DNA of 64,000 bases from Gemmatimonadota bacterium (lineage in GTDB: Bacteria; Gemmatimonadota; Gemmatimonadetes; Palauibacterales; Palauibacteraceae), in NCBI GenBank assembly GCA_049668445.1, contig JBATJK010000235.1:15714-79713 (forward strand), read 5' to 3'. A model generated the notes under the pieces. The model saw nothing but the letters and a program-made list of their open reading frames with translations, made no database searches and had not been told where the DNA came from. Positions 2,320 to 54,539 of the stretch are shown piece after piece. The position numbers were made by a program, and so were the translations under genes. Numbering within the stretch: the first letter of the stretch is position 1; every line of letters starts with the position of its first letter.

Positions 2320-2323
<4 letters not shown>
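1295..2323 (+). CDS. lpxD: UDP-3-O-(3-hydroxyacyl)glucosamine N-acyltransferase
   Basis: ATG at 1295 preceded by GGGGGAAAG. N-terminal LpxD domain plus long hexapeptide left-handed beta-helix repeats ([22 protein letters not shown]...). The larger ORF from 1142 is an N-terminal over-extension. Confidence 0.9.
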
Positions 2324-3617
<1,294 letters not shown>

Positions 3618-3621
<4 letters not shown>

Positions 3622-8380: not shown

Positions 8381-9957
8381 GCACTCCGGAGAGAATCTGC
8401 ACCGATCTCCTGGTCGTGGGATCGGGCATTGCCGGGCTGAGCTTCTCGCTCAAGGCATGCCGCTACGCCGATGTGGTCGTCGTCACGAAGAAGGAACGGA
8501 TCGAGTCGAACACGAACTACGCCCAGGGGGGAGTGGCTGCCGTGTTCGACCCGGACGACTCGCACGAGATTCATGTGGCAGATACCCTCGTCGCCGGAGC
8601 CGGGCTGTGCCACCGGAGGGCCGTGGAAGAACTGGTTCGAGAAGGGCCGAAACGGGTCCGTGAACTGATGGACTGGGGCGTGCGGTTCAGCCGGGAAGGT
8701 GGCAGGGTCTCTCTCGGGCGGGAGGCTGGACACAGTGAACGGAGGATTCTTCACGCCGCGGATCTCACGGGGCAGGAGATCGAGCGCGCGCTCCTCGAGG
8801 CGGTCGCGGCCGAGCCGAGGATCACCCTGCTGGAGGACCATTTCGTATGGTCGCTGGCCACCGTCATGGATCCGACCTGGAACCGCGTGCGGTGTGCTGG
8901 CGCTCTCGTACTGGACGTACATGGCGGACGTTTCAAGGCGGTCGACGCCCGGGCTGTAATGTTGGCAGCGGGTGGAACGGGTTTTCTGTATCGCCACACG
9001 ACGAATCCCGATATCGCGACGGGCGACGGAATCGCTCTGGGCCACGCGGCGGGAGCCGCCGTGGCGAACCTGGAATTCGTGCAGTTCCACCCCACCGCGA
9101 TGTACCCGGCGGAGGAGCGGGCCCAACTCATCTCCGAAGCCGTCAGAGGAGAGGGCGCCGTACTCCGCCGCCGGGACGGGGTCGAGTTCATGACCGCCTA
9201 CCATCCCGACGGATCTCTGGCCCCTCGGGATGTCGTGGCACGCGCGTGCGACGCTGAGATGAAGAAGACGGGAGACGAGTTCGTCCTCCTCGACCTCTCA
9301 GCGATCGATCCTCTCGTCGTCGCTGAACGCTTCCCGAACATCGCACGCGAGTGCGCGGAGCGCGGTATCGACTTGCCCCGGGACCCCATCCCGGTCGTCC
9401 CCGCAGCACACTACCAGTGCGGCGGACTTCTGACCGACTGGGACGGGAGAACGTCTCTGACCGGGCTTTATGCATCGGGTGAGATTGCCTGCACCGGCGT
9501 TCATGGCGCCAACAGGCTCGCCTCGAACTCTCTCCTCGAGGCCGTCGTGTTCTCTCATAGAGCTTCGATCCGACTTGCCGCCGATCTGCACGCCCTTCCA
9601 GAGGTGCCGGGAGTCGCTTGGGTGTTGCCCGATCTCGAGGCACCCGGGAGCGCCGCTGGAGATTTGGAGCGGACGATCAGGGACCTGATGTGGGACAAGG
9701 TAGGAATCGTCAGATCCGATGAACGTCTCGAGGCGGCCCGCGCCGAGATTGATGGGCTGTCAGGGGACGCCATCGCCAGGGATGGCACCGGACCCGGCGC
9801 CATGCGCGCCCGGCAGGCAGAGTTCATGCGCGAAGTCGCGGCTCTCGTCGTCCGCTCCGCACAACGTCGTCGGGAGAGCAGGGGACTGCATTTCACGGAG
9901 AGTCACCCGCGACGGGACAACGAGCACTTTCTGCGGGATACGGTCCTGGCGCGATGA
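8377..9957 (+). CDS. nadB: L-aspartate oxidase
   Basis: FAD-binding N-terminus DLLVVGSGIAGLS, plus a succinate dehydrogenase/fumarate reductase flavoprotein-like core (YAQGGVAA, HYQCGGL, VHGANRLASNSLLEA). ATGA overlap with lpxK. Confidence 0.9.
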   Translation: MSTPERICTDLLVVGSGIAGLSFSLKACRYADVVVVTKKERIESNTNYAQGGVAAVFDPDDSHEIHVADTLVAGAGLCHRRAVEELVREGPKRVRELMDWGVRFSREGGRVSLGREAGHSERRILHAADLTGQEIERALLEAVAAEPRITLLEDHFVWSLATVMDPTWNRVRCAGALVLDVHGGRFKAVDARAVMLAAGGTGFLYRHTTNPDIATGDGIALGHAAGAAVANLEFVQFHPTAMYPAEERAQLISEAVRGEGAVLRRRDGVEFMTAYHPDGSLAPRDVVARACDAEMKKTGDEFVLLDLSAIDPLVVAERFPNIARECAERGIDLPRDPIPVVPAAHYQCGGLLTDWDGRTSLTGLYASGEIACTGVHGANRLASNSLLEAVVFSHRASIRLAADLHALPEVPGVAWVLPDLEAPGSAAGDLERTIRDLMWDKVGIVRSDERLEAARAEIDGLSGDAIARDGTGPGAMRARQAEFMREVAALVVRSAQRRRESRGLHFTESHPRRDNEHFLRDTVLAR

Positions 9958-9973: not shown

Positions 9974-10453
9974 ATGAGATTGGTCGTCCTTGCCGTCGGA
10001 TCGCCCCGCGATCGGCACATGGCCGGCTTGATCCACGAGTACGAGGCTCGCGCCGGCCGCTACTTCCGCCTGGAGGTGATGGAGGTCGCCGCAGCCACCG
10101 GCGTGGGCGGCTTCCCCCAACAGGCACGGGCGCGCGAGGCCCAGAATCTGAGCAAGCGGATTCCTGCCGGCCTCCACACGTGGGCTTTGACGCGTGGCGG
10201 AGCGGAAATCAGTTCCGACGAGTTAGCCGGATCGCTGTCCGACCTGGCTACCTACGGTCACCCCGGAGTCGCCTTCCTCATAGGTGGAGCCTTCGGCCTG
10301 GACGAGGATCTCGTGCAGGGATCGTCCCGAGCCCTCTCCCTATCGCGAATGACGTTGCCACACGACATGGCTCGACTCGTTCTTGCCGAGCAGCTCTACC
10401 GGGCCGGCACCATCGCACGCGGCGAGCCGTACCATAAGGGGAGACCGCGGTGA
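9974..10453 (+). CDS. rlmH: 23S rRNA (pseudouridine1915-N3)-methyltransferase RlmH (SPOUT)
   Basis: ATG at 9974. 159 aa, MRLVVLAVGSPRD...HPGVAFLIGGAFGLDED...LSLSRMTLPHDMARLVLAEQLYRA, typical of RlmH. The longer ORF from 9719 is an over-extension. Confidence 0.85.
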   Translation: MRLVVLAVGSPRDRHMAGLIHEYEARAGRYFRLEVMEVAAATGVGGFPQQARAREAQNLSKRIPAGLHTWALTRGGAEISSDELAGSLSDLATYGHPGVAFLIGGAFGLDEDLVQGSSRALSLSRMTLPHDMARLVLAEQLYRAGTIARGEPYHKGRPR

Positions 10454-11217
10454 CCTCCTCGAAGCCGACACGGGAGTGGTTTCGTGACTGGTTCGGCGAG
10501 GAGTACCTGGCCCTCTACCCGCACCGGGACGAGCGAGAGGCACGCGAAGCCGTGGACCTCTATCGCGACGTTGCCTCTCCTGAGCCGGGCTCCCGGCTCC
10601 TCGACCTGGCTTGCGGGGCGGGCCGGCATCTACGCGAGCTGCGGGCCGCCGGCCTCGATGCGACGGGCCTCGACCTGTCGCCGACCCTGCTGCGATCCGC
10701 CAGATCCAGCGCCGGAGCGGATCCCCTGGTGCGTGGAGACATGCGCCAGCTCCCGTTCTGTTCCGGGTCATTCGGCGGACTGACCAGCTTCTTCACGTCG
10801 TTCGGATACTTTGCGGAGACGGCCGACGATCGGCGGGTCCTACGCGAAATGGCCCGGGTGCTGGCTCCGGGAGGCACGTTCATGCTGGACTTCTTGAACG
10901 CTGCGCGCGTTCGAGAGGACCTCGTCCCGGAGGATTGCCGTGAGGTCGAGGACCGGCGAGTGGTACAGGTCCGGGAGATCATCGACGGCGTCGTCGTGAA
11001 GCGGATACGGATCGAGCCCGTTGCCGGGGGCCCGGCCCGCCACTTCGAAGAGCGCGTGCGCCTGTATTCCTGCGAGGAACTGGTGTCACTGCTGGCCGGA
11101 GTGGGACTCGCGACCACGGCACGTTTCGGCGACTATGTGGGAGCCTCGTACTTCGACCGATCGCCCCGGCTCATACTGGCCGGGCGACTGGATCCGGCAG
11201 GGGAGGAGACGGTGTGA
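10450..11217 (+). CDS. Class I SAM-dependent methyltransferase (candidate bacillithiol N-methyltransferase, NmbA-like, by context)
   Basis: GTG start overlapping the rlmH stop (GTGA). Motif I LLDLACGAGRH and a post-I acidic residue. Methyltransf_11/25-like. Its stop overlaps the bshC GTG start (GTGA), with GGAGGAGA RBS for bshC inside its 3' end. Confidence 0.8.
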   Translation: MTSSKPTREWFRDWFGEEYLALYPHRDEREAREAVDLYRDVASPEPGSRLLDLACGAGRHLRELRAAGLDATGLDLSPTLLRSARSSAGADPLVRGDMRQLPFCSGSFGGLTSFFTSFGYFAETADDRRVLREMARVLAPGGTFMLDFLNAARVREDLVPEDCREVEDRRVVQVREIIDGVVVKRIRIEPVAGGPARHFEERVRLYSCEELVSLLAGVGLATTARFGDYVGASYFDRSPRLILAGRLDPAGEETV

Positions 11218-12842
11218 GCGACCTGCACTTCGAGCCCGAGAGGATTTCCGGTCCCGGGGGTCTCGTTTCGGGTATCCTGGCGGGCGACCAGGGGGCCCGA
11301 GCCCTGTTCCCGCCCGGGGTGTTCGGGCCCGAGGAGACGCCGGTTGCGCGCCCGAGTCTCGAATACAGCCTCGATCCGGCGTCCTTCCATTGCACGGAGC
11401 CAGCCGCGCGCGACCGTCTCGAAGCGGCGCTCGCCGGAGAGGGGCTCGTGGTCACGACGGGGCAGCAGCCCCAACTGTTTGGCGGGCCGCTCTACGTCTT
11501 GTACAAGGCGCTGTCCGCCGTGCGCTGCGCTGCCCGGATCGAGCGAGAGTTCGACACGCCCTGCGTGGCCGTCTTCTGGGTCGCCGCCGATGACCACGAC
11601 TGGCCCGAGGTGGCTTCGGTCAGCTACCTGGACCGGGAAGAACAGCTTCGCCGACTCAAGCTGACGGCTCCGGCTAATCGAGCCGGCCGGCCCGTAGGCC
11701 CATCATTGCTCCCGGTCGAGGTCGAAAGACTGACGCGTGAGTTTCTCGACTCACTCGAGACTCGCGAAGCGGGAAGTCGGTGGCTCCAGGTCCTGCGGGA
11801 TCAGTATTCAGCAGGCCGCTCTTTCACTGAAGCGTTCATAGGAGTGGCCTCCGCCTGGATGGACGGACTTCCGATCGCCTTCCTCGACTCGGCTCAACCC
11901 GGGGTCCGCGACGCAGCGAGTCCCTTCGTGCAACGGGTCCTCGAGCAGCGCGACCTGGTGAACCAGGCGCTCGAGCGTGGAACCGCGGCGGTCACGGAGC
12001 TTGGATACCGCCCACAGCTGACACAGATTCCGGGGGCGATACCCCTGTTCCGTGAAGGAGCGGGTGGGCGGTACCGGCTGCGGGAAGCGTCCGGCCGCAT
12101 TCAGATCGACCGGGACGACAACTTCCAGGACGTCTCCCAGCTGGTCGCTGAGGCGACGGCAGAGAGCGATCGATTCAGTCCCTCCGCTGCGTTGCGGCCG
12201 GTCCTCGAGTCCTGGCTGCTTCCCGTGCAGGCTACGGTCTTGGGACCTGGCGAGGTCGCCTACTGGTCCCAGCTGCCCCCCCTGTTCCGCGCTCTCGATG
12301 TGCCGATGCCAGCGATCCTCCCGCGGGATTCCTGGCGCGTGATCGAGCCGCGCACGGAGAGGCTGCTTCGCAAAACCGGCGTCTCGGCCGACGAGCTGAG
12401 GGACGGAGGTGCAACCGCATCCGCTGGCCTCATCGAGCGCAGTCGCCCACGGGGGGTTGAAGAAGCCCTCCTGCGGCTCGAGGGCCGCCTGGACGAGGAG
12501 TTCAGCTCCCTGGAGTCCACGGTAACCTCAGACCTGCCGGGACTTCGGTCAGCGGTCGGAAAGAGCCGCAGCCAGGCATTCTCGGCACTGGCAGCTCTGC
12601 GCAAGACCCTCGACAACGTGACTCGAGACCGGGAGGAGTCGACGCTCGGGCAACTGCGCCGGGCAGCGGCCAATCTATTCCCTGAAGGAGTCCCCCAGGA
12701 GCGGGCCCTGGCCGTCTGGGTGTACCTGGCCCGCTACGGAGATGAATTCATCGACGCGGCGCGATCCGCGGCTCTGGAGTCACCCTCAGAGCACTCCGCG
12801 TCCCGTGCCGACGGCGTTGCTGGGGGTGCAACGGCGGAGTAG
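11214..12842 (+). CDS. bshC: Bacillithiol biosynthesis cysteine-adding enzyme BshC
   Basis: 542 aa. N-terminal signature VVTTGQQPQLFGGPLYVLYKALS and CVAVFWVAADDHDW match the BshC/YllA hallmark (VITGQQAGLLTGPLY...VFWIAGEDHD). Size typical of BshC. Confidence 0.8.
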   Translation: MSDLHFEPERISGPGGLVSGILAGDQGARALFPPGVFGPEETPVARPSLEYSLDPASFHCTEPAARDRLEAALAGEGLVVTTGQQPQLFGGPLYVLYKALSAVRCAARIEREFDTPCVAVFWVAADDHDWPEVASVSYLDREEQLRRLKLTAPANRAGRPVGPSLLPVEVERLTREFLDSLETREAGSRWLQVLRDQYSAGRSFTEAFIGVASAWMDGLPIAFLDSAQPGVRDAASPFVQRVLEQRDLVNQALERGTAAVTELGYRPQLTQIPGAIPLFREGAGGRYRLREASGRIQIDRDDNFQDVSQLVAEATAESDRFSPSAALRPVLESWLLPVQATVLGPGEVAYWSQLPPLFRALDVPMPAILPRDSWRVIEPRTERLLRKTGVSADELRDGGATASAGLIERSRPRGVEEALLRLEGRLDEEFSSLESTVTSDLPGLRSAVGKSRSQAFSALAALRKTLDNVTRDREESTLGQLRRAAANLFPEGVPQERALAVWVYLARYGDEFIDAARSAALESPSEHSASRADGVAGGATAE

Positions 12843-12910: not shown

Positions 12911-13186
12911 GTGCACTGGGCCGTTATCATCGGTCTCGTCCTCATGATTCCGATCCTCGCGATCGTTCTGGACTCGCCTGTGGGACAGGCGTGGGCCAAT
13001 CGTATCGCCAGGGGCAGTGATGACCGGAAGTCTCCCGAACTCGACTCACAGGTCGAGGAGCTGGCGGCCGAGGTCAAGTACCTGACCGAGAGCATGGAGA
13101 GTCTTCGGGAAGAAACGGAGTTCGTGCGCCGGCTGGTAGAGGGAACCGGCGACGGCGACGCTTCCCGCCTCGAGCCGGGTGAGTGA
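12911..13186 (+). CDS. Small hypothetical membrane protein (N-terminal TM helix plus acidic coiled-coil)
   Basis: GTG start. MHWAVIIGLVLMIPILAIVLDSP (TM) followed by a predicted amphipathic helix ELDSQVEELAAEVKYLTESMESLREETEFVRRL. No family assignment possible. Occupies the only gap between bshC and murJ. Confidence 0.4.
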   Translation: MHWAVIIGLVLMIPILAIVLDSPVGQAWANRIARGSDDRKSPELDSQVEELAAEVKYLTESMESLREETEFVRRLVEGTGDGDASRLEPGE

Positions 13187-27989: not shown

Positions 27990-30316
27990 GATTCCTCCGG
28001 CTCCTTCCCTGACCGGCTCATGCCGGGGAATCGCCAGGGCAAGAACCCGATCAGGAGCCACACGAGAGCGCCGGCCGCCGAGATCCCAGAGACCATGAAC
28101 CCGATCCGGAACTCGGCCGCGGAATAGCGGAAGGTCACCTCGTGAGTGCCCGCCGGCACGACGACGCCCCGGAACGCAGTATTGGTCCGCAGGATCTCGG
28201 TGGGCTGTCCGTCGATTCGGGCCCGCCAGGCCGGATAGTAGACTTCACTGAGAAACAGGAGCCCGGCCTGGCTGGCCTCCACCTGCAGGACGAGCTCGTT
28301 GGGCTCGTATCGCATGATCGTCGCCACCCCCGAGCCCGCCGCCGGAGCCACGTCACCCTCTACGATGGCAAGCTCGAGCGGATCGGCCTCGAGAATCCGG
28401 CGCAGGGCCTCAGCCGTGTCCGGTGTGGCCTCGACTCTTCGCGGGAAGAACGCGTGCGGAACGTCGCCCAGCACCCGGTAAGCCGAGCCTCGCGACCCCG
28501 TAGCCTCCAGAGCGAGAATCTCGGCTGACACGCCTGGCCCGGCCACGATGAAGCCCACATCGAGCAGCCCCAGGGCCGCCACCGTGCCCACGTTCTGCAT
28601 CCCCAATCCGCCCGTGAAGCGCTCGTACCATTCGAGTCGGAACTTCTGGATGCCGGTAACCGTGGGGATTCCATGGACGCTGAGCTCACTGGGCCCGTAG
28701 CCCGCCATTCCCGCCGGAGGGAAGGCCCTCTCGGCCAGGACGAGTTCCGAGCGCAGGTGCTCGATCACCGTATCGGAGGGAAAGACGGTCTCTGGATCCA
28801 CCGTCCGGAGGTAGCGGTCGTTCACGCGCCAGCCATCAGCGACCATGACAAGGAGGAGGAGGGCAACCACCCACTCCGGAGCGCGACGCATTCCCACCCC
28901 CCAGGCCGCGCCCAGGCCGCCTCCGACGCCCAGCAGGAGCATCCAGCCGTTCATCCGGAGCGGTCCCCCTGGATCCGCCGCCGCGGATCGGGTCCAGCCC
29001 ACCGGATACCATGCCGTTCGCACCCAGCGGAGCAGGCCCTCGGGTGAGAAGGCCGCGGCAAGACCGAGAAGGAGCAACGGCGAGGCCAGCAAGAAGACCC
29101 AGACCCACGGGATGCTGCCCACTCCCCTGCGAGCCTCCAGCACCTTCTGCCACCCCAGGCCGGCCAGGAGCGCGATCATGAGGCTCGCGGGACCCAGCAT
29201 CATCGATGGTGCTCGGAATTGCTTGACGAACGGAATGACCGAGTACGCCAGTCGATGCAGCGGCGTGGCCGCGCCCAGGGCGAAGAGAACGCAGGTGAGA
29301 GCGGTAATCGCGACGAAGGTCACCCTGCGATCGCTGCGGATCGCTGTCAGGGCGACGAGGGCCAGGGCCACTGGCACGGCGCCCAGGTACTCGGTGTGGA
29401 GCTTGAACGGGTTGCTTCCCCAATATGTCCCGAGCGATCCGATCAGGTCCGGAAGGATGAGGGCGGAAACCTCCTGCGGGGGAAGCGCCCACGACGATGC
29501 GAAGGCGTAGCCCGACTCCCCTGCCCCACCGCGCACGGCCACGTCCAGGATCTGGACGGTGGGCAGGAGCTGAGCCAACCCGACCAGACCCGCCACCGCG
29601 AAGCCCAGCGCCCACATGCCGACCAGGGGAACCGCTGTTCGCGCCCCCTCGTTCCTGGCTCGCTGCCCGATCCTCATCGCCGCGTACAGCGTGAGAGCGA
29701 GCGAGGAGTAGTACATGAGCTGGATATGGGGCGTAAAGATCTGCAGGGCGATCACGAGGCCAAGGGCGACGAACCACCGAGTGCGGCTCGACTCGAGGCC
29801 CCGTTCGAGACACATGAACGCCAGTGGAATCAGCGCCATCGCGAACATGCGGCCGTCGTGTCCCCCGTACAGTGTCGACACGACGAACCCCGTAAGCATG
29901 AACGCCAATCCGGTCACCGCTGACGGCATGCGCTCCAGTCGAATCGACCGGGCTGCCAGGTAGGCGAAAACACCCGAAAGGAACGTGTGCAATACGAATG
30001 TCCAGCCGATGGCCCGGTGCAGGGGCATGATCAGGTAGAGAAGACTCGTCGGATAGAACACCGGGCCGGGCAGGATCGCGAGGTAGGGTTGTCCCCCATA
30101 CACAAACGGATTCCACAACGGAAACCCTCGGCCGGACCGAATTTCGCCTACTCCGAACGAGCGCAGCTGGAAGCCCTCGTTGATCATGTCGTCGCCGTAC
30201 AGCATCGCGCCGGGATCGAAGATGAACCCGCGGTAGAACACCAGGGTCAGAAATCCGGCGACTGCAGCCGCAATCCATACGAATTGCCGTGTGCTCCAGC
30301 GCCCACCGCCGGTCAT
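27986..30316 (-). CDS. YfhO-family membrane glycosyltransferase (GT-C fold)
   Basis: ~776 aa polytopic. YfhO-like N-terminal region (FYRGFIFDPGAMLYGDDMINEGFQLRSF...FPLWNPFVYGGQPYLAILPG...) and a C-terminal periplasmic domain. ATG at 30316-30314 overlaps the stop of the upstream methyltransferase (ATGA). The longer ORF to 30439 is an over-extension. Confidence 0.72.
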   Translation of the reverse strand: MTGGGRWSTRQFVWIAAAVAGFLTLVFYRGFIFDPGAMLYGDDMINEGFQLRSFGVGEIRSGRGFPLWNPFVYGGQPYLAILPGPVFYPTSLLYLIMPLHRAIGWTFVLHTFLSGVFAYLAARSIRLERMPSAVTGLAFMLTGFVVSTLYGGHDGRMFAMALIPLAFMCLERGLESSRTRWFVALGLVIALQIFTPHIQLMYYSSLALTLYAAMRIGQRARNEGARTAVPLVGMWALGFAVAGLVGLAQLLPTVQILDVAVRGGAGESGYAFASSWALPPQEVSALILPDLIGSLGTYWGSNPFKLHTEYLGAVPVALALVALTAIRSDRRVTFVAITALTCVLFALGAATPLHRLAYSVIPFVKQFRAPSMMLGPASLMIALLAGLGWQKVLEARRGVGSIPWVWVFLLASPLLLLGLAAAFSPEGLLRWVRTAWYPVGWTRSAAADPGGPLRMNGWMLLLGVGGGLGAAWGVGMRRAPEWVVALLLLVMVADGWRVNDRYLRTVDPETVFPSDTVIEHLRSELVLAERAFPPAGMAGYGPSELSVHGIPTVTGIQKFRLEWYERFTGGLGMQNVGTVAALGLLDVGFIVAGPGVSAEILALEATGSRGSAYRVLGDVPHAFFPRRVEATPDTAEALRRILEADPLELAIVEGDVAPAAGSGVATIMRYEPNELVLQVEASQAGLLFLSEVYYPAWRARIDGQPTEILRTNTAFRGVVVPAGTHEVTFRYSAAEFRIGFMVSGISAAGALVWLLIGFLPWRFPGMSRSGKEPEES

Positions 30317-31077
30317 TCGCTGATCTCCAGGGCGTCGGACGGACGTGCCGGCCGCTCGAGGAAGAAGAACCACTGCGGCGATCCGGTTCTGAGGAAGCTC
30401 CGGCGCACCCCAGCAGGCATTCTGCGCATGGCTCCCCACACGGCACCCCAGCGCTCGCCCCAGGCCATGCGGATCAGGTCGTCAATGGCACGCTCTGTCA
30501 CGTCGTGGATGATAAAGCCCGCTGATCGCATGAGTCTCGTCAAGGGTCGATAGGTGAGGAACCGGATGTCGTCGTACGACCGCCCCCGGCGCGTGATGCG
30601 AAGGTAGGCCCCGGCTGACCCCTTCGGTAGCCAACTGAGAAACGGCAGCCGGTAGTGAGGCTCCACGATCGCGAAGCGGCTGCCCGCCGTAACGTAGGCC
30701 CGCCCACCCGGCCTCAGTACCCGATAGGTCTCGCGGAACAGTTCTCCCGCATCGGGAACGTGCTCGTACAGGTGGTTCAACATCACGAAGTCCAGGCTCT
30801 CCGAGGCGAAGGGGATGCGCAGAACATCTCCCCGGACCATGCGTTCCTTCTCGACTATGAATTCGCTGTCTATTTCCAGTCCATATATCGGGTTACCAGA
30901 CTCCACTTCAAGTGCCTTGCGAATAATTCCGGTTCCCGCGCCGAGGTCCGCCGCGCGGGCCGAGCCCGTCAGGTAGGGCGCGCACAGGTGGGCGATGACA
31001 CGGGCCTTTCGGAGGCGTCCCTCCCGATAGGCCTCGGTGGCCGTGAACCTTTCGTATCGATCAGTCCCGGCGCTCAC
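30313..31077 (-). CDS. Class I SAM-dependent methyltransferase
   Basis: Motif I DLGAGTGI; acidic post-I; Methyltransf_11/23-like (VMLNHLYEHVPD...VLRPGGRAYV). GTG start at 31077 is 14 nt after the GT4 stop. The longer ORF to 31191 would overlap GT4 by 130 nt. Confidence 0.72.
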   Translation of the reverse strand: MSAGTDRYERFTATEAYREGRLRKARVIAHLCAPYLTGSARAADLGAGTGIIRKALEVESGNPIYGLEIDSEFIVEKERMVRGDVLRIPFASESLDFVMLNHLYEHVPDAGELFRETYRVLRPGGRAYVTAGSRFAIVEPHYRLPFLSWLPKGSAGAYLRITRRGRSYDDIRFLTYRPLTRLMRSAGFIIHDVTERAIDDLIRMAWGERWGAVWGAMRRMPAGVRRSFLRTGSPQWFFFLERPARPSDALEISE

Positions 31078-32281
31078 GGCGTGCCTCCACGGCGGACGAA
31101 TACACGGCAGTCGTCTCCTCCAGGATTCGCTCCCACGAGAAGCGTGCCTCGGCTCGCCGTTTGCCCTGAGCCGCCACGCGGCGGGCTTCATCCGGATCGG
31201 AGATCACATCGAGAATTCGCCGCGCGAGGACCTCCGAATCCCCTGGATCCGATAACCACCCGGTCTCCCCGTCGATCACGATGTCGGGAATGCCCCCTGC
31301 TCGAGAGGCGACGACGGGGCGCTCATACGCCAGCGCCTCCAGAAGGACGACGCCAAGGCCCTCGGTGTCGCCACGCGAATCCACCACCGCGGGAAGGACG
31401 AAGATGTCCGACTCCGCATACTCCTGCGCGAGCCGCTCCGCCGTCACGAATCCGCGCATGTGGACATGATCCGCGACGCCCTCCAGCGCCGCCGTCCGCC
31501 GCACGCTGTCCTCTCGATTCCCCGAGCCGACGATCACCAGTTCCGCGTCCCGCGTGTGCCGGAGTCTGGCGAGGGCTCGAACCAGCACTTCGACACCTTT
31601 CCTCTCCACGAGCCGGCCGACGAACAGCAGCCGGACGGGATCAGTGGCACTGGAGAGGGCCGGGCGAATGCGGTCCGGTGACACGTCCGGGATCACCGCT
31701 GCATAGGGGACAACGGCCACGGAGCGATCCCACAGGCCCTGTACGGACCTCGCCGTCGAGGTGGAGATGGCCGTCACCGCGTCCGCGGACCGGATGCTCC
31801 ACTCGAGAAACGGACGGAGCCACGGGAGGCGCTGATCTACCCAATTCACCTCCACGCTGTAGAAGCTGCAGACCATCGCGGTCCGTCCCCTCGACGCCCG
31901 GCGCATGGAGGCCCCGAACAGGGCATGCGGCATGGGCCAGTGAACGTGCACCAGATCTGGTCCACCGCGCCCCAGGTCCGCGGCCGCGGCGCACCCTGCC
32001 GCGAGGTAGGACGGCACGAGCGCCGCCGATGCGGGGCGGTCGCGGATCCGATCAGGGACGGCCTGATCGTGTGTGAGTGTTTCCAGGAAACGGGGCGCGT
32101 ACCGGAAACGTCGCACGGGAACGCCTGAGGATTCCTCGTCCGGTCCACCTTTGTACGCGGGCGCCAGGACGCTGGCATCGATTCCAGCCTGGCGCTGACG
32201 TCGGACCAGCTCGACCAGCCAGGGGGTGATCGGATCATCACGATGCCTGGGAAAGGCCGTGGCTACATGAATGACCTTCAT
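31061..32281 (-). CDS. Glycosyltransferase family 4 (retaining, GT-B)
   Basis: 406 aa. N-terminal Glyco_transf_4-like domain (MKVIHVATAFP...) and C-terminal Glycos_transf_1 (EX7E: GDTEGLGVVLLEALAYERPVVASRAGGIPDIV). ATGA overlap with the upstream GT39 gene. Confidence 0.85.
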   Translation of the reverse strand: MKVIHVATAFPRHRDDPITPWLVELVRRQRQAGIDASVLAPAYKGGPDEESSGVPVRRFRYAPRFLETLTHDQAVPDRIRDRPASAALVPSYLAAGCAAAADLGRGGPDLVHVHWPMPHALFGASMRRASRGRTAMVCSFYSVEVNWVDQRLPWLRPFLEWSIRSADAVTAISTSTARSVQGLWDRSVAVVPYAAVIPDVSPDRIRPALSSATDPVRLLFVGRLVERKGVEVLVRALARLRHTRDAELVIVGSGNREDSVRRTAALEGVADHVHMRGFVTAERLAQEYAESDIFVLPAVVDSRGDTEGLGVVLLEALAYERPVVASRAGGIPDIVIDGETGWLSDPGDSEVLARRILDVISDPDEARRVAAQGKRRAEARFSWERILEETTAVYSSAVEARRERRD

Positions 32282-47543: not shown

Positions 47544-47954
47544 TCAGGCCTCGCGACCGACCCCGAGCAGGCGGAGCGCCAGGTAGGCCGCGTTCCGCGA
47601 GTTGTCGATGCCGACCGCGGCCACAGGGACGCCGGGAGGCATCTGAACGATGGACAGAAGGGCGTCAAGACCCCCGAGCGTGCCTGCCGAGATCGGAACT
47701 CCAATCACGGGTAGCCGCGTGTGTGCGGCGACCACGCCCGGGAGCGCCGCGGACAGACCCGCTCCACAGATGATGGTCCCAAAGCCCTCCGCCTCGGCCG
47801 AAGTCGCCACCTCAGCCGTACGAACCGGGTCCCGATGGGCGCTGCTCACGACCACCTCGACCTCCACGCCAGCCTCGGCGAGCACGTCGACTCCCTTCTG
47901 CATCACGGGTCGGTCGGATTCAGACCCCATCATGACGAGCACTCGTCCACCCAT
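47544..47954 (-). CDS. purE: 5-(carboxyamino)imidazole ribonucleotide mutase
   Basis: VLVMMGSESDRPVM...VVSSAHRDP...IICGAGLSAALPGVVAAHTRLPVIGVP matches PurE. ATG at 47954-47952 overlaps the upstream stop by 1 nt. Confidence 0.85.
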   Translation of the reverse strand: MGGRVLVMMGSESDRPVMQKGVDVLAEAGVEVEVVVSSAHRDPVRTAEVATSAEAEGFGTIICGAGLSAALPGVVAAHTRLPVIGVPISAGTLGGLDALLSIVQMPPGVPVAAVGIDNSRNAAYLALRLLGVGREA

Positions 47955-49072
47955 CAGACACCTCTCCTGTCCAGGCAAACCGCACAACCACAATACCAAT
48001 CCAGGTCGTCTCGGACCGAGGAGTAGTCCTGGTATCTGGGCACGGCCTTGAAGCCCGCTTCTTCAATGAATCGTACCAGCATCGGACGGGGCATGATGAA
48101 GTCCGTCCCCGTAGCCGACACCACGTTCTCCTCCATCATCAGTGAGCCGAAGTCATTGCACCCGAAGTGCAGGGCCACCTGCGCCACCTTCGGCCCCTGG
48201 GTGACGTAGCTCACCTGGAGGTTGCGAACATTGTCAATCACCAGGCGCGAGATCGCCACGGTCTTCAGGTACTCGGCTGCTGTCGCCTCCGGCGTGCCGT
48301 CCATCTCCGTACCGTCTGACTGGAGAGTCCACGGAATGAACGCGGTGAAGCCACCGGTCTCCCGCTGCAGATCGCGCACCCGGATCATGTGCTCGACCCT
48401 GTCCTCCCGGCTCTCCCCTGCCCCGAACATCATCGTCGCCGAACTCAGCAAACCCCGGCCGTGCACCGCCCGGTGGATATCCAGCCACCGTCCAGTATCG
48501 ATCTTTTTCTTCGCGATGCGATCCCGCACACCGTCCACCAGTATCTCCGCACCGGCCCCCGGTACCGAGTCGAGTCCGGCGTCCATCAATTCGCCGACGA
48601 CCGTATCCACGTCCAGCTTGTGGACTCGAGCGATGATGTCGAGCTCGGACGCCGAGAACCCGTGCACGTGGATGGGGTGATGCGTCTTGATGTAGTCGAG
48701 CAGACCCGTGTAGTAGTCCAGTTTCAGATACGGATTGTGCCCGCCCTGCATGAGGATCTGTACCGCGCCGATCGCTTTCGCTTCATCGATTTTGGCCCCG
48801 ATCTGCTCGTTCGTAAGGACATAACCCTCTTCGTGACCCGGTCGTCGATAGAAGGCGCAGAACGAGCAGTCCGTGACACACACGTTGGTATAATTGATGT
48901 TGCGGTCCGCGATGTACGAGACAACCCCACCCGGCACAGCCGCCCTGGCCCGCTCACGGGCCATGGCCCCCAGTTCCAGCAGCGGCCGATCGTAAAGGGA
49001 AGCGTACTCGGCCCGTTCCGCGGCATCCACCGGTTCAAGGGCGGTCGACGGACCGCTCACACCCGTGGTCAT
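47954..49072 (-). CDS. Radical SAM enzyme of the MqnC/MqnE (CofH-like) family, futalosine menaquinone pathway
   Basis: CVTDCSFCAF (CxxxCxxC). 372 aa. Strong family resemblance to cyclic dehypoxanthinyl futalosine synthase / aminofutalosine synthase. Which of the two it is cannot be decided by eye. Confidence 0.78.
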   Translation of the reverse strand: MTTGVSGPSTALEPVDAAERAEYASLYDRPLLELGAMARERARAAVPGGVVSYIADRNINYTNVCVTDCSFCAFYRRPGHEEGYVLTNEQIGAKIDEAKAIGAVQILMQGGHNPYLKLDYYTGLLDYIKTHHPIHVHGFSASELDIIARVHKLDVDTVVGELMDAGLDSVPGAGAEILVDGVRDRIAKKKIDTGRWLDIHRAVHGRGLLSSATMMFGAGESREDRVEHMIRVRDLQRETGGFTAFIPWTLQSDGTEMDGTPEATAAEYLKTVAISRLVIDNVRNLQVSYVTQGPKVAQVALHFGCNDFGSLMMEENVVSATGTDFIMPRPMLVRFIEEAGFKAVPRYQDYSSVRDDLDWYCGCAVCLDRRGV

Positions 49073-50220
49073 ACGGCCGCCGGCTCCCCGACCGCGTTGT
49101 AGAGAGAATCACGCTCGACGGGCGTCTTACCGGCATCCCGGATAAGCCTCACGATCTCGTCGAGGTCGAGTCCGATGGGGGTATCGGCTCCAGCCGTGTG
49201 CGTGATTTTCTCGAGCACCACCGTGCCTTCCAGATCGTCGACTCCGAACGAAAGTGCGATCTGGGAGACCTTGGTGGTCACCATGATCCAGTGCGTCTTG
49301 ATGTGCGGAACGTTGTCCAGGAGAATGCGGCCTACCGCCAGGGCTTTCAGATCGTCCAGCCCGCCCGTCCGGTTCCCCTCCAGTCCCATCTCGCGTCCCA
49401 GGGCCGTGTTGTCAGGATGCCAGGCCAGCGGAATGAAAGTGCTGAAACCCCCGGTCTCATCCTGCAGGTCGCGCAACATGAGCATGTGGTCGACCCGGTC
49501 GGCCGACGACTCGACATGACCGTAAAGAAGCGTGCAGTTCGTCGGAATCGACAGTTCGTGGGCTTCCCGGTGCACCTGAAGCCACTCTTCCGCGGCCAGT
49601 TTCCTGTCCGCAATCGTCGAACGAACCGCGGGGCTGAACACTTCCGCACCCCCGCCAGGCATGGCGTCGAGCCCGGCGTCCTTCAACTCGCGGATCACAT
49701 CCTTCGTCGTCACTCCCTCGATACGGGCCAGGTGAGCGATCTCGACCGCGGTCAGGGCCTTTACGTGCACGTGCGGGTGTCGCTCCTTCAGCCCCCTGAC
49801 CATGTCCGTGTAGTAGGACAGCGGCAGTTTCGGATGCAGCCCACCCACGATATGGAACTCCCGCGTCGGGGAGTGCCGGGCCGCATCGGCTTCCGCGTAG
49901 ACCTCTTCAAGGCTCATGGTGTATGCGTCCTCAGCCACCGGACGCACTCCATATGAGCAGAACACGCAGACCTTGTTGAGGATGCAGACGTTGGTGGGGT
50001 TGATGTGCTGGTTGGCGACATAATACACCCGGTCCCCGTTCAGGCGCCGGTTCACCAGATCAGCCATGCTGCCGACCGCAAGGAGGTCGTCCGTCTCGAA
50101 CAGCGCGATCGCATCCGCGCGAGAAATCCGTTCGCCGGCCTCGACCTTCTCCGCGATCGAGATCAACTCCGGTGCCTGTGGCCTGACGCTCAACTCACCT
50201 TCGATCCGGGGGTAGATCAC
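49069..50220 (-). CDS. Radical SAM enzyme of the MqnC/MqnE (CofH-like) family, second paralog
   Basis: 383 aa. Cys cluster CILNKVCVFCSY. Homologous along its length to the adjacent gene. ATGA overlaps with both the fabF stop (50217-50220) and the downstream paralog (49069-49072). Confidence 0.78.
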   Translation of the reverse strand: MIYPRIEGELSVRPQAPELISIAEKVEAGERISRADAIALFETDDLLAVGSMADLVNRRLNGDRVYYVANQHINPTNVCILNKVCVFCSYGVRPVAEDAYTMSLEEVYAEADAARHSPTREFHIVGGLHPKLPLSYYTDMVRGLKERHPHVHVKALTAVEIAHLARIEGVTTKDVIRELKDAGLDAMPGGGAEVFSPAVRSTIADRKLAAEEWLQVHREAHELSIPTNCTLLYGHVESSADRVDHMLMLRDLQDETGGFSTFIPLAWHPDNTALGREMGLEGNRTGGLDDLKALAVGRILLDNVPHIKTHWIMVTTKVSQIALSFGVDDLEGTVVLEKITHTAGADTPIGLDLDEIVRLIRDAGKTPVERDSLYNAVGEPAAV

Positions 50221-51791: not shown

Positions 51792-52526
51792 CTACATCAC
51801 CATGCCACCGTCTACCACCAGAACCTGTCCGGTTATGTAGGAGGCGGTCGGTCCCGCCAGGAAGCGTACCGCTCCCGCTATGTCCTCAGGGTTTCCGAAC
51901 CGTCCAAGCGGAATTCGCTCGAACAGCGCGTCGCGCGCCTCCTCGGGTAGAGATGCCGTCATGTCGGTCTCGATGAAGCCCGGCGCCACCACGTTCGCGA
52001 GCACTCCTCGGCCCGCAAGTTCCTGCGCCACCGACTTCGTGAACCCGATCAGGCCTGCCTTGGATGCCGCATAGTTGGCCTGTCCGCTGTTCCCCGTCAA
52101 GCCTACCACGCTGCTGATATTGATGATGCGGCCGCTCCGCCGCTTCATCATTCCTCGCGCGACGGCGCGGGTCGTGTTGAACGCCCCCCGGAGGTTTGTC
52201 TCCAGCACCGCTTCCCAGTCCTCGTCCTTCAAGCGGACGAGGATATTGTCTCTCGTGATGCCCGCGTTGTTCACCAGCACTTCGATCGGACCGAGTTCGT
52301 CCTGCACTGTGGCGAGGACGTCAGAACACTGCCCCGGGTTCGCCACGTCGCATGCCAGAGCAATTGCAGGTCCTTCGATGAGCGCTACGGTTTCGCGTGC
52401 CCTGTCCTCGGACCTGGCAACAACGGCTACGGAAGCCCCTGCCTGACCGAGCTCACAGGCGATGGCCCTACCGATTCCTCTAGAGCCTCCCGTGACGACG
52501 GCCACCTGACCTTCGAGTTCACGCAT
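51792..52526 (-). CDS. fabG: 3-oxoacyl-ACP reductase
   Basis: ATG at 52526 ([23 protein letters not shown]). SDR catalytic NAG...YAASKAG. The ORF to 52586 is an over-extension. Confidence 0.9.
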
Positions 52527-53472
52527 CGTCGCCCTCCTCCACGAGTGCTTGCACGGCGTCGAGTTCCTCGGGACCCCCGATCGCACGAACGTCCGCTCCC
52601 CGATCGATGCGGCGCATCAATCCGGTGAGCACCTTGCCCGGGCCCACCTCGATCCACCTGTCCGGCCGGGTTCCCTTCATCGCCTCGACGCATTCTACCC
52701 AGCGGACCGGTGACGTCAACTGCTCGATGAGCAACTCTCGAGCCTGAGCCGGTTCAGTGACTGGAACCGCCGCCGCGTTGGCCACGACCGGGAACCGGGC
52801 CTCCCGCACCTCCACCCCCTCGAGGGACAGGGCCAGGCCCTCGCGAGCCTCTTCCATCAGGGGAGAGTGGAACGCCCCACTCACATTGAGCGGGACCGCT
52901 CGCTTGGCCCCGGCCTCGAGAGCCCGCTCCCTGGCCACAGCGACCGCTTCAATGTCCCCACTGATCACGATCTGGCCCGGAGCGTTGTAATTCGCGGGCA
53001 CTACGGTGCCGTCCTGGACGCTCTCGCAGACCTCCCGAACCGCGTCCGGATCCAGGCCGATGACGGCCGCCATCGTACCGGGCCGGACCGTACCCGCCCT
53101 CCCCATGAGTTCGCCGCGCCTGCGAACCAGCCGAATCGCGTCCTCGAACGCCAGGGCACCCGCGGCGAGGTAAGCGGAGAACTCGCCCAGCGAATGGCCG
53201 GCGCCAACTGTCACACGCTCGCGCACTTCCTCCGGAAGGCAGACCCACACGGCGTAGCTGTGCAGCAGAATCGCCGGCTGGGCGTTCTCGGTGCGCGTCA
53301 GTTCTTCCTCGGGGCCCTCCCAACAGATCCGCCTGAGGTCGGTGCCCAGTACTTCGTTGGCCCGCTCGAACACATCAGCCGCACGGGCGTGGCTCTCGGC
53401 AAGCTCCCTGCCCATACCCACGAATTGAGAGCCCTGACCCGGCATCAGAAGAGCGATGCTGTTCCCACCCAC
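52519..53472 (-). CDS. fabD: Malonyl-CoA:ACP transacylase
   Basis: LLMPGQGSQFVGMG and GHSLGEFSA are the active-site motifs. GTG start at 53472 preceded by AGGGAG. The upstream 200-nt ORF extension is rejected. Its stop overlaps the fabG start. Confidence 0.85.
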   Translation of the reverse strand: MGGNSIALLMPGQGSQFVGMGRELAESHARAADVFERANEVLGTDLRRICWEGPEEELTRTENAQPAILLHSYAVWVCLPEEVRERVTVGAGHSLGEFSAYLAAGALAFEDAIRLVRRRGELMGRAGTVRPGTMAAVIGLDPDAVREVCESVQDGTVVPANYNAPGQIVISGDIEAVAVARERALEAGAKRAVPLNVSGAFHSPLMEEAREGLALSLEGVEVREARFPVVANAAAVPVTEPAQARELLIEQLTSPVRWVECVEAMKGTRPDRWIEVGPGKVLTGLMRRIDRGADVRAIGGPEELDAVQALVEEGDDA

Positions 53473-53528
53473 TGCCGTCTCCCTCGTTGAAGTGGAGCGA
53501 TACACGGGCGCCGATGGCGACCTGTCGG

Positions 53529-54539
53529 TCAGCGGCGGCGGATCCGTCTCCATACCCTCGCGCGCCTCGTGCTCGGCCCGAACTCTGACGCCATGTCCTC
53601 GACCATATCGGCCTCGAGGCAGACGCCCGCAACCCGGATGGCGTTCTTGATCGCCCGGGCGGAGGACCCGCCGTGACATATGATCGACACTCCGTTGACC
53701 CCGAGCAGCGGCGCTCCACCATACTCGGCGTAGTCGATCGTCCTGAACACTTCCTTGAAGCCCACCCCGTGCACCTCGGGGTCGAGCTGCGCTTTCATTA
53801 CTCCGGCTATGAAACCGGCCACCGATTCGTAGAACTTCAGCAGTACGTTCCCGACGAATCCGTCACACACCAGAACATCGCAGGCTCCCTGGACGATCCT
53901 GTGACCTTCGATGTTCCCGACGAAATTCAGGTCTTCGTCCTCCTGCAGCAGCCTGTGCGTCGCCACCGCCCGGGCTCCGCCCTTTGACGACTCCTCTCCC
54001 ACGTTCAACAGACCGACCCTGGGGCTCTCCAGCCCGAGCAGGTCTTTCATGTAGACCGAACCGAGCTGTGCGAACTGGAGCAAGTGCGAGGGGCGGGCGT
54101 CGATGTTGGCTCCCGAATCCACAACCAGGACCGGCGATCCAGACGTTGGGAACATCGTGCCCACGGTGGGTCGTTCCACACCCGGAAGCATCCCGAGAAG
54201 GAGGCGGGAAGCCGCCATCACGGCCCCGGTGGACCCGGCACTGATGAAGGCATCGACCTCGCCGGCCCGGAGCAGCCCGAGTCCGACCACGATCGAGCTG
54301 TCCGGCTTCCGCCGGATGGCGCGAACGGGAGATTCGTGCCCCTCGACTACCTCAGTGGCCGGAACGATCTGGATGGCGTCGGGGATCTCCGGGGGAAGGA
54401 CCTCCCGGATACTCTCGGGAATGCCCACGAGAGACATAGCGAACCTGTCGGGCCACTCCTGAACGGCAGACAGCGCGCCCTCGATGATGACTCGGGGCGC
54501 GCCGTCTCCTCCCATGGCGTCCAGCGCAATGCGCCACAT
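53529..54539 (-). CDS. plsX: Phosphate:acyl-ACP acyltransferase PlsX
   Basis: MWRIALDAMGGDGAP...ISAGSTGA... matches PlsX. rpmF-plsX-fabD-fabG-acpP-fabF order. Confidence 0.9.
   Translation of the reverse strand: MWRIALDAMGGDGAPRVIIEGALSAVQEWPDRFAMSLVGIPESIREVLPPEIPDAIQIVPATEVVEGHESPVRAIRRKPDSSIVVGLGLLRAGEVDAFISAGSTGAVMAASRLLLGMLPGVERPTVGTMFPTSGSPVLVVDSGANIDARPSHLLQFAQLGSVYMKDLLGLESPRVGLLNVGEESSKGGARAVATHRLLQEDEDLNFVGNIEGHRIVQGACDVLVCDGFVGNVLLKFYESVAGFIAGVMKAQLDPEVHGVGFKEVFRTIDYAEYGGAPLLGVNGVSIICHGGSSARAIKNAIRVAGVCLEADMVEDMASEFGPSTRRARVWRRIRRR

Follow-up and report, generated by a model that had tools for sequence, protein, structure and literature searches.

A Predicted N-Methyl-Bacillithiol Gene Pair, nmbA–bshC, in an Uncultured Gemmatimonadota Bacterium and Its Conservation across Phyla

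Results

A Predicted Bacillithiol N-Methyltransferase Gene Overlaps bshC

We analyzed a 64,000-nucleotide stretch of DNA (hereafter, the window) from an uncultured Gemmatimonadota bacterium (contig JBATJK010000235.1), in which a gene for a class I S-adenosylmethionine (SAM)-dependent methyltransferase (10450–11217, + strand; GTG start, 255 amino acids [aa]) runs directly into bshC (11214–12842, + strand; GTG start, 542 aa), the gene for the bacillithiol biosynthesis cysteine-adding enzyme. From sequence and structure matches, the methyltransferase is a predicted bacillithiol N-methyltransferase, NmbA, and the region very likely encodes the enzymes for the final two steps of N-methyl-bacillithiol (N-Me-BSH) synthesis. 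In the established pathway, BshA and BshB make glucosaminyl-malate (GlcN-Mal) and BshC adds cysteine to yield bacillithiol (BSH) (PMC5790435; PMC6282198), a step that had not been reconstituted in vitro as of a 2018 review (PMC5790435). N-Me-BSH and NmbA first came to light in Chlorobi, and a Bacteroidetes species provided confirmation (Hiras et al. 2018, PMC6282198); when CT1040 is deleted in Chlorobaculum tepidum, N-Me-BSH is lost and BSH accumulates (PMC6282198). NmbA transfers a methyl group from SAM to the cysteinyl nitrogen of BSH in its reduced form; in vitro, the enzymes of C. tepidum (CtNmbA, encoded by CT1040) and Paenibacillus polymyxa act on reduced BSH and leave bacillithiol disulfide (BSSB), glycine, and glutathione unmethylated (Hammerstad et al. 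2025, PMC12719100).

The top sequence match of the window methyltransferase in the PDB was chain A of 9RI2, the crystal structure of CtNmbA (PMC12719100), with an E value of 1.1e-41 and 146 bits (query residues 4–247 against chain residues 10–261), while the next-best methyltransferase, KedS8 (5BSZ), reached 64 bits, i.e., 82 bits lower. The comparison that a first-pass annotation of this DNA had proposed, of NmbA against rRNA and ubiquinone methyltransferases, thus favors NmbA. Aligned pairwise, the two proteins, 255 and 266 aa in length, are homologous throughout and share 38% identity over 254 aligned positions (E 8e-49). Under the published definition of an NmbA orthologue (BLAST E ≤ 1e-20, coverage >80%, identity >25%, and similar length; PMC12719100), the window protein is one, with 243 of its 255 residues aligned. 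When CtNmbA was searched against the whole window at E ≤ 10, this gene was the sole match; a second class I methyltransferase (30313–31077, − strand) was considered as an NmbA paralogue and rejected, as CtNmbA had no match to it even at that threshold. Pfam placed the 255-aa protein only in Methyltransf_11 and Methyltransf_25, in keeping with its earlier description as a class I SAM methyltransferase upstream of bshC. In NCBIfam, no methyltransferase model came near its cutoff (UbiE, MenG, and BioC gave 22–51 bits versus cutoffs of 158–420), and neither Pfam nor NCBIfam yielded a model that recognizes NmbA. The identical protein at NCBI (MGB5525577.1), which comes from a Gemmatimonadota metagenome-assembled genome, is named only "class I SAM-dependent methyltransferase," and the close homologues carry Gemmatimonadota or Gemmatimonadales labels.

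An alignment of the window protein with CtNmbA and Gemmatimonadota homologues contained the invariant blocks REWF..WF, YL..Y.HR, LD.ACGAGRH, DLS..LL..AR, R.DMR, F.SFGYF, F.E.VR.Y, and GDY.G. The N-terminal block of the window protein, REWFRDWF (10471–10494, + strand), in which R8, W10, F11, W14, and F15 are invariant, has the counterpart REWFEEWF in CtNmbA, where it is part of the substrate-binding Cap domain. The SAM-binding motif I, LLDLACGAGRH (10597–10629, + strand; aa 50–60), is of the AxGxG variant, as in CtNmbA (VLDI-ACGAG; motif I described as VLDI-AxGxG in PMC12719100). The FTSFGYF block (10792–10812, + strand) supplies the Y/F pair of motif V, with Y120/F121 aligning with Y134/F135 of CtNmbA, residues that have a proposed role in stabilizing the SAM adenine (PMC12719100). 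The AlphaFold2 model of the window protein (predicted local distance difference test [pLDDT] score of 83.7) comprises a Rossmann core, an N-terminal helix, and four additional strands (161–166, 169–178, 181–190, and 197–204), which fall where the Cap domain of NmbA sits. This domain consists of an N-terminal helix and four antiparallel strands that form a narrow substrate basket, and it is here that AlphaFold models depart from the CtNmbA crystal structure (PMC12719100). A Foldseek search of the PDB with the model returned 9RI2 first, but the margin over CypM and CcbJ was small, so the fold is consistent with NmbA but not discriminating. At the level of sequence, the window methyltransferase is an NmbA orthologue, and the gene is hereafter called nmbA.

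The 542-aa protein is, by profile and motif, a genuine BshC. It scored 336.5 bits on the equivalog model TIGR03998 (curated cutoff 265.8) and matched PF10079 (Rossmann-like_BshC, 2.1e-64) and PF24850 (CC_BshC, 1e-16). Its only match among solved structures was Bacillus subtilis BshC (YllA, 4WBD; E 2.9e-38), with which it shares two domains, one Rossmann-like and one coiled coil, and the hallmark motifs from which the first-pass annotation had recognized it. These lie in the Rossmann-like domain (11448–11600, + strand), with VVTTGQQ at aa 79–85 (11448–11468), LFGGPLY at aa 88–94 (11475–11495), and VFWVAADDHD at aa 120–129 (11571–11600), and they align to GGQQAGLLTGPLY and IFWVAGEDHD of the B. 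subtilis protein. The NCBI record of the identical protein, MGB5525578.1, is named BshC. Unlike the window gene, B. subtilis bshC has no neighboring methyltransferase mentioned in PMC5790435.

The Gene Junctions Suggest Translational Coupling

Both ends of nmbA overlap a neighboring gene, as had been noted from the sequence at the outset, in each case by four bases. At the upstream end, the overlap with rlmH (9974–10453, + strand; 159 aa) is a GTGA at 10450–10453 (+ strand), in which the rlmH TGA stop meets the nmbA start, with GGGGAG ahead of it. RlmH is the 23S rRNA pseudouridine1915 N3-methyltransferase, and its gene is context here, outside the thiol module; the mechanical rlmH open reading frame (ORF) begins at 9719, but the SPOUT domain starts only at residue 86, PF02590 (4e-40) and the RlmH models of NCBIfam cover residues 86–240, and on identical public contigs rlmH was independently called from window position 9974. 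At the downstream end, a second GTGA (11214–11217, + strand) joins nmbA to bshC, with the GTG at 11214–11216 forming the bshC start and the TGA at 11215–11217 the methyltransferase stop, and a Shine-Dalgarno-like GGAGGAG (11202–11208, + strand) lies within the 3′ end of nmbA, five bases before the bshC start. Both nmbA and bshC are intact ORFs with the third-position GC bias that real genes have in DNA of this composition (65% GC). They belong to a tightly packed housekeeping block without a strand change, which runs from bamA through lpx genes to nadB, rlmH, nmbA, bshC, a small ORF, murJ, and uvrC. No terminator-like or sigma70-like sites were detected on the + strand between 7000 and 17000, which is weak evidence, as consensus scans may not fit this phylum.

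Given the co-directional genes, the 4-nucleotide (nt) overlaps, and the Shine-Dalgarno-like sequences, nmbA and bshC are most likely co-transcribed and translationally coupled. In the mechanism that we propose, rlmH, nmbA, and bshC would be co-transcribed within the long co-directional block, and ribosomes ending nmbA would re-initiate on bshC, tying the output of the two enzymes, so that the methyltransferase would be produced along with the enzyme supplying its substrate. BshC would add cysteine to GlcN-Mal to form BSH, and the NmbA orthologue would transfer a methyl group from SAM to the cysteinyl amine of BSH in its reduced form, giving N-Me-BSH. The suppliers of GlcN-Mal, bshA and bshB, would be sited elsewhere in the genome.

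The nmbA–bshC Pair Is Conserved in Gemmatimonadota and Recurs in Other Phyla

The linkage was surveyed by scanning with an NmbA profile, one genome per species, which gave 80 loci that were compared with the window genes by tblastn; the pattern R[ED]WF[RE][DEA]WF recovered the NmbA family in genome contigs. Two of the 80 loci end before the downstream gene would be visible, leaving 78 that could be evaluated. In 72 of these, the gene immediately downstream of the NmbA homologue, in the same orientation, is bshC. The order (lpxK)-(nadB)-rlmH-nmbA-bshC-small ORF-murJ-uvrC is common to all evaluable Gemmatimonadota-type loci, and the pair is conserved in many Gemmatimonadota metagenome-assembled genomes (MAGs), with 45–100% identity. 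The 4-base overlap between the nmbA stop and the bshC start, in the general form NTGA, is present at 41 of 54 Gemmatimonadota-type loci and at four loci from other phyla (L077, L079, L085, and L086), a recurrence beyond chance. Among the Gemmatimonadota are species of Candidatus Palauibacter, three of whose loci (L016, L028, and L029) show the order lpxK-rlmH-nmbA-bshC-small ORF-murJ-uvrC and encode NmbA proteins 53–55% identical to that of the window; the window bacterium is from another lineage within Gemmatimonadota. One of these with window-type synteny, L028, is Ca. Palauibacter irciniicola, which is listed with NmbA, BshA, BshB, and BshC (PMC12719100). Full Gemmatimonadota-type synteny, including lpxK, rlmH, nmbA, bshC, murJ, and uvrC, was also seen at a locus from a MAG labeled Bacillota (L040, JBLMWC010000031.1), a label that is probably a binning or classification error.

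The pair is not confined to this gene neighborhood. Of the 72 nmbA–bshC loci, 19 carry the labels Thermoanaerobaculia (including Ca. Multivoradales), other Acidobacteriota, Anaerolineales, and Planctomycetota, and none of the Gemmatimonadota flanking genes was found by tblastn in these 19 loci. Thus, rlmH stands beside nmbA only in Gemmatimonadota-type loci, whereas bshC stands beside nmbA across phyla. Downstream of bshC in these loci, a BshB1 gene follows in 18 of 19 and then a BshA gene in 15 of 19. The proteins of these clusters scored 247–257 bits for BshB1 (cutoff 182.5) and 508 bits for BshA (cutoff 273.7); the BshC of L078 reached 290 bits (cutoff 265.8), while that of L085 was just under the same cutoff, at 244.5 bits. 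Complete nmbA-bshC-bshB1-bshA clusters are present at L078 (6007–10291), L085 (5995–10156), L051, L054, L056, L058, L060, L061, L065, L067, L069, L070, L073, L077, and L086. These four-gene clusters, from Thermoanaerobaculia, other Acidobacteriota, and Planctomycetota MAGs, are tightly packed, often with the stop codon of the methyltransferase gene overlapping the bshC start, and appear to be operons in which the last-acting enzyme is encoded first. They resemble the window in having a methyltransferase of the same family (41–48% identity) directly before bshC, but they carry the whole pathway, whereas the Gemmatimonadota keep only nmbA–bshC, amid envelope and housekeeping genes. Since this methyltransferase clade heads complete nmbA-bshC-bshB1-bshA clusters, its link with bacillithiol synthesis does not depend on homology to CT1040.

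Conversely, bshC does not follow the NmbA homologue in 6 of the 78 loci, namely four from Holophagaceae, one from Acidobacteriota, and one from Bacteroidetes. Because the NmbA homologue is not beside bshC in the Holophagaceae (L049, L057, L072, and L082), the linkage was either lost or never gained in that family. There, pgk comes next after the NmbA homologue in L049, L057, and L082, with tpi further downstream in L057 and L082. The C. tepidum genome likewise carries both nmbA and bshC, but its pathway genes are dispersed (CT0548, CT1419, CT1558, and CT1040; PMC6282198), with nmbA (CT1040) and bshC (CT1558) at separate loci instead of overlapping by 4 nt as in the window.

The Window Carries Neither bshA nor bshB

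The first-pass annotation had placed bshA and bshB elsewhere, and this was borne out: the 64 kb contained no BshB match and only a weak BshA match, to a glycosyltransferase family 4 (GT4) gene (31061–32281, − strand). A search of the window for bshB, with the PIG-L motif (HPDD/PDDE) and with genuine BshB1 sequences in tblastn, gave nothing in a real reading frame. A second look at the right end of the window turned up no bsh genes either, and the ORF at 52519–53679 had no matching record, probably because of a difference in the called start. The GT4 gene was examined as a BshA candidate and rejected because it lies far under the cutoff of TIGR03999 (121.7 versus 273.7 bits, matching model positions 86–373 only) and stands in an envelope-glycosylation context. 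Its product is 30% identical to a genuine BshA, and its neighbors are the envelope genes GT2, YfhO, and LPG_synthase_TM. This cluster, at about 26–34 kb (window 30313–32281, − strand, and its neighbors), holds GT2, LPG_synthase_TM, YfhO, the second class I methyltransferase mentioned above, the GT4 gene (whose best NCBIfam model is BshA, far below cutoff), a 534-aa protein without recognized domains, and another GT2, and it is followed by rpoN, lptB, lptC, kdsD, kdsC, and kdsA.

Beyond the window, a BshB1 profile search of a set of 5.8 billion proteins gave no Gemmatimonadota among the 120 matches listed, in which the named proteins were all from Thermoanaerobaculia or Acidobacteriota, except for one probable contaminant record. 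Indirect support for a complete pathway in the phylum comes from expression of bshB1 in Gemmatimonas phototrophica and from the supplement of the 2025 study, which lists BshA, BshB, and BshC in 13 Gemmatimonadota species (PMC12719100). By analogy with these relatives, the genome studied here may have the remaining genes.

Alternative Explanations

Several observations weigh against an N-Me-BSH module in this bacterium. An identity of 38% to CtNmbA may leave room for a shifted substrate; the TM-scores of the AlphaFold2 model to 9RI2 (0.66–0.75) are no better than those to CypM or CcbJ; and the N-terminal 25 residues, which include the family-specific REWF..WF block, are modeled with low confidence (pLDDT <50). 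Moreover, neither bshA nor bshB was found in the window or in the 10 kb further upstream (~74 kb inspected), and the literature searched contained no thiol measurement for any Gemmatimonadota.

The first two of these points would fit a natural-product methyltransferase that resembles NmbA but acts on a different acceptor, for example another amine or a BSH precursor such as cysteine or GlcN-Mal, in which case the adjacency to bshC would reflect a related but distinct chemistry. Such acceptors are conceivable in that the published sequence similarity network of NmbA has some homologues outside the main clusters that might use them (PMC12719100). We nevertheless regard this explanation as improbable, for the conserved linkage of the family to bshC, bshB1, and bshA in several phyla speaks for the BSH pathway, the proteins from Gemmatimonadota resemble CtNmbA (about 35–40% identity) no less than those embedded in operons do (about 31–35%), and N-methyl-cysteine has never been detected in C. 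tepidum (PMC6282198).

The lack of bshA and bshB in the inspected sequence, together with the subthreshold score of the sole GT4 in the window, could alternatively mean that the pair is an orphan remnant in a genome lacking one or both genes, with no bacillithiol-type thiol made or with BshC acting on a different amino-sugar scaffold. This appears quite improbable, since both genes are intact with a strong codon-position GC bias and the pair is conserved in many Gemmatimonadota MAGs. Split bsh genes are, moreover, normal, as the dispersed set of C. tepidum illustrates, and the 13 Gemmatimonadota species listed with BshA and BshB include a syntenic Palauibacter (PMC12719100). The bshB1 expression in G. 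phototrophica likewise speaks against a remnant.

Finally, the overlap with rlmH and weak matches to Ubie_methyltran and MenG might suggest that the enzyme methylates RNA, alongside rlmH, or a quinone, in the menaquinone pathway, with bshC as an unrelated neighbor, but this idea is effectively refuted, because the rlmH adjacency is lineage-specific and the bshC adjacency is not, the UbiE, MenG, and BioC scores lie far below their cutoffs, and the best structural relatives are small-molecule N-methyltransferases. Synthesis of N-Me-BSH, with the last two steps encoded by nmbA and bshC, remains the explanation that we consider very likely.

Neighboring Genes

Between bshC and murJ lies a 91-aa ORF (12911–13186, + strand), which overlaps the murJ start by 8 nt and is predicted to have a hydrophobic N-terminal helix and a coiled-coil-like tail; Pfam and NCBIfam gave no match to it. 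It is kept at the same position in more than 30 Gemmatimonadota loci (35–82% identity), but bsh clusters from other phyla lack it, so its link is probably with murJ and the envelope and not with thiol synthesis. Upstream, the block bamA-ompH-lpxD-lpxC/fabZ-lpxA-gfo-lpxB-DUF374-lpxK, which includes a fused LpxC-FabZ gene (2320–3621, + strand; 433 aa, PF03331 and PF07977), runs on the same strand into nadB-rlmH-nmbA-bshC. On the same contig, upstream of the window and directly before bamA, are an mcsA-like gene (UVR), mcsB (ATP:guanido phosphotransferase), and clpC (L090, 3412–7528); the mcsA/mcsB/clpC protein-arginine-kinase quality-control module is known mainly from Firmicutes. Elsewhere in the window, mqnC (439.8 bits, cutoff 428.1) adjoins mqnE (479.5 bits, cutoff 434.6) at 47954–50220 (− strand), and this predicted pair points to the futalosine route to menaquinone.

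Discussion

The first-pass annotation had suggested an N-Me-BSH module outside the Firmicutes. Its core stands, in that the methyltransferase groups with NmbA, but its framing as a novelty does not, given that N-Me-BSH or its genes had already been published for Chlorobi, Bacteroidetes, and Gemmatimonadota. For the last of these, Hammerstad et al. (2025, PMC12719100) assigned NmbA to 8 of 13 species, four of them belonging to Ca. Palauibacter, and the prediction of N-Me-BSH in this phylum is therefore not new. Longimicrobium terrae and Pseudogemmatithrix spongiicola are among the species listed with NmbA, and Gemmatimonas aurantiaca and G. phototrophica among those listed for BshA, BshB, and BshC only. 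In the 2025 paper, the Palauibacter proteins are given by accession only, and no mention of adjacent genes or operons was found in its preprint or published version, in the 2018 paper (PMC6282198), or in a 2019 commentary. The conserved and probably translationally coupled nmbA–bshC pair and the four-gene operons thus appear to be unreported, and we regard them as a modest new comparative-genomic observation.

The overlap of nmbA with bshC and the nmbA-first order of the operons may also reflect a physical partnership between NmbA and BshC, in which BSH would receive its methyl group during its own synthesis and would not build up. We think this unlikely. Among the best 150 of 826 strong representatives of the family, no NmbA–BshC fusion protein was found, which argues against a strong version of such a partnership. 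The sole long protein among these 150 (P0290, 519 aa) contains two methyltransferase domains in tandem, with the NmbA-like one in the C-terminal half (residues 274–514) and another class I domain in the N-terminal half. Furthermore, B. subtilis makes BSH with BshA, BshB, and BshC alone (PMC5790435), so NmbA cannot be a general cofactor of BshC. If the partnership did exist, the compact operons would amount to a portable N-Me-BSH cassette, and a complex or channeling between the two enzymes could help with the BshC reaction, which was unreconstituted as of 2018.

The known chemistry and enzymology of N-Me-BSH are unchanged by these findings. As current pipelines name the NmbA protein only as a generic methyltransferase, the nmbA–bshC pair is a practical aid to annotation: either the pair or the four-gene operon would allow N-methyl-bacillithiol producers in uncultured soil and sediment phyla to be recognized simply and specifically from their genomes. 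Gene context, independent of homology, also supports the idea that bacillithiol derivatives rank with the most widespread redox thiols of bacteria.

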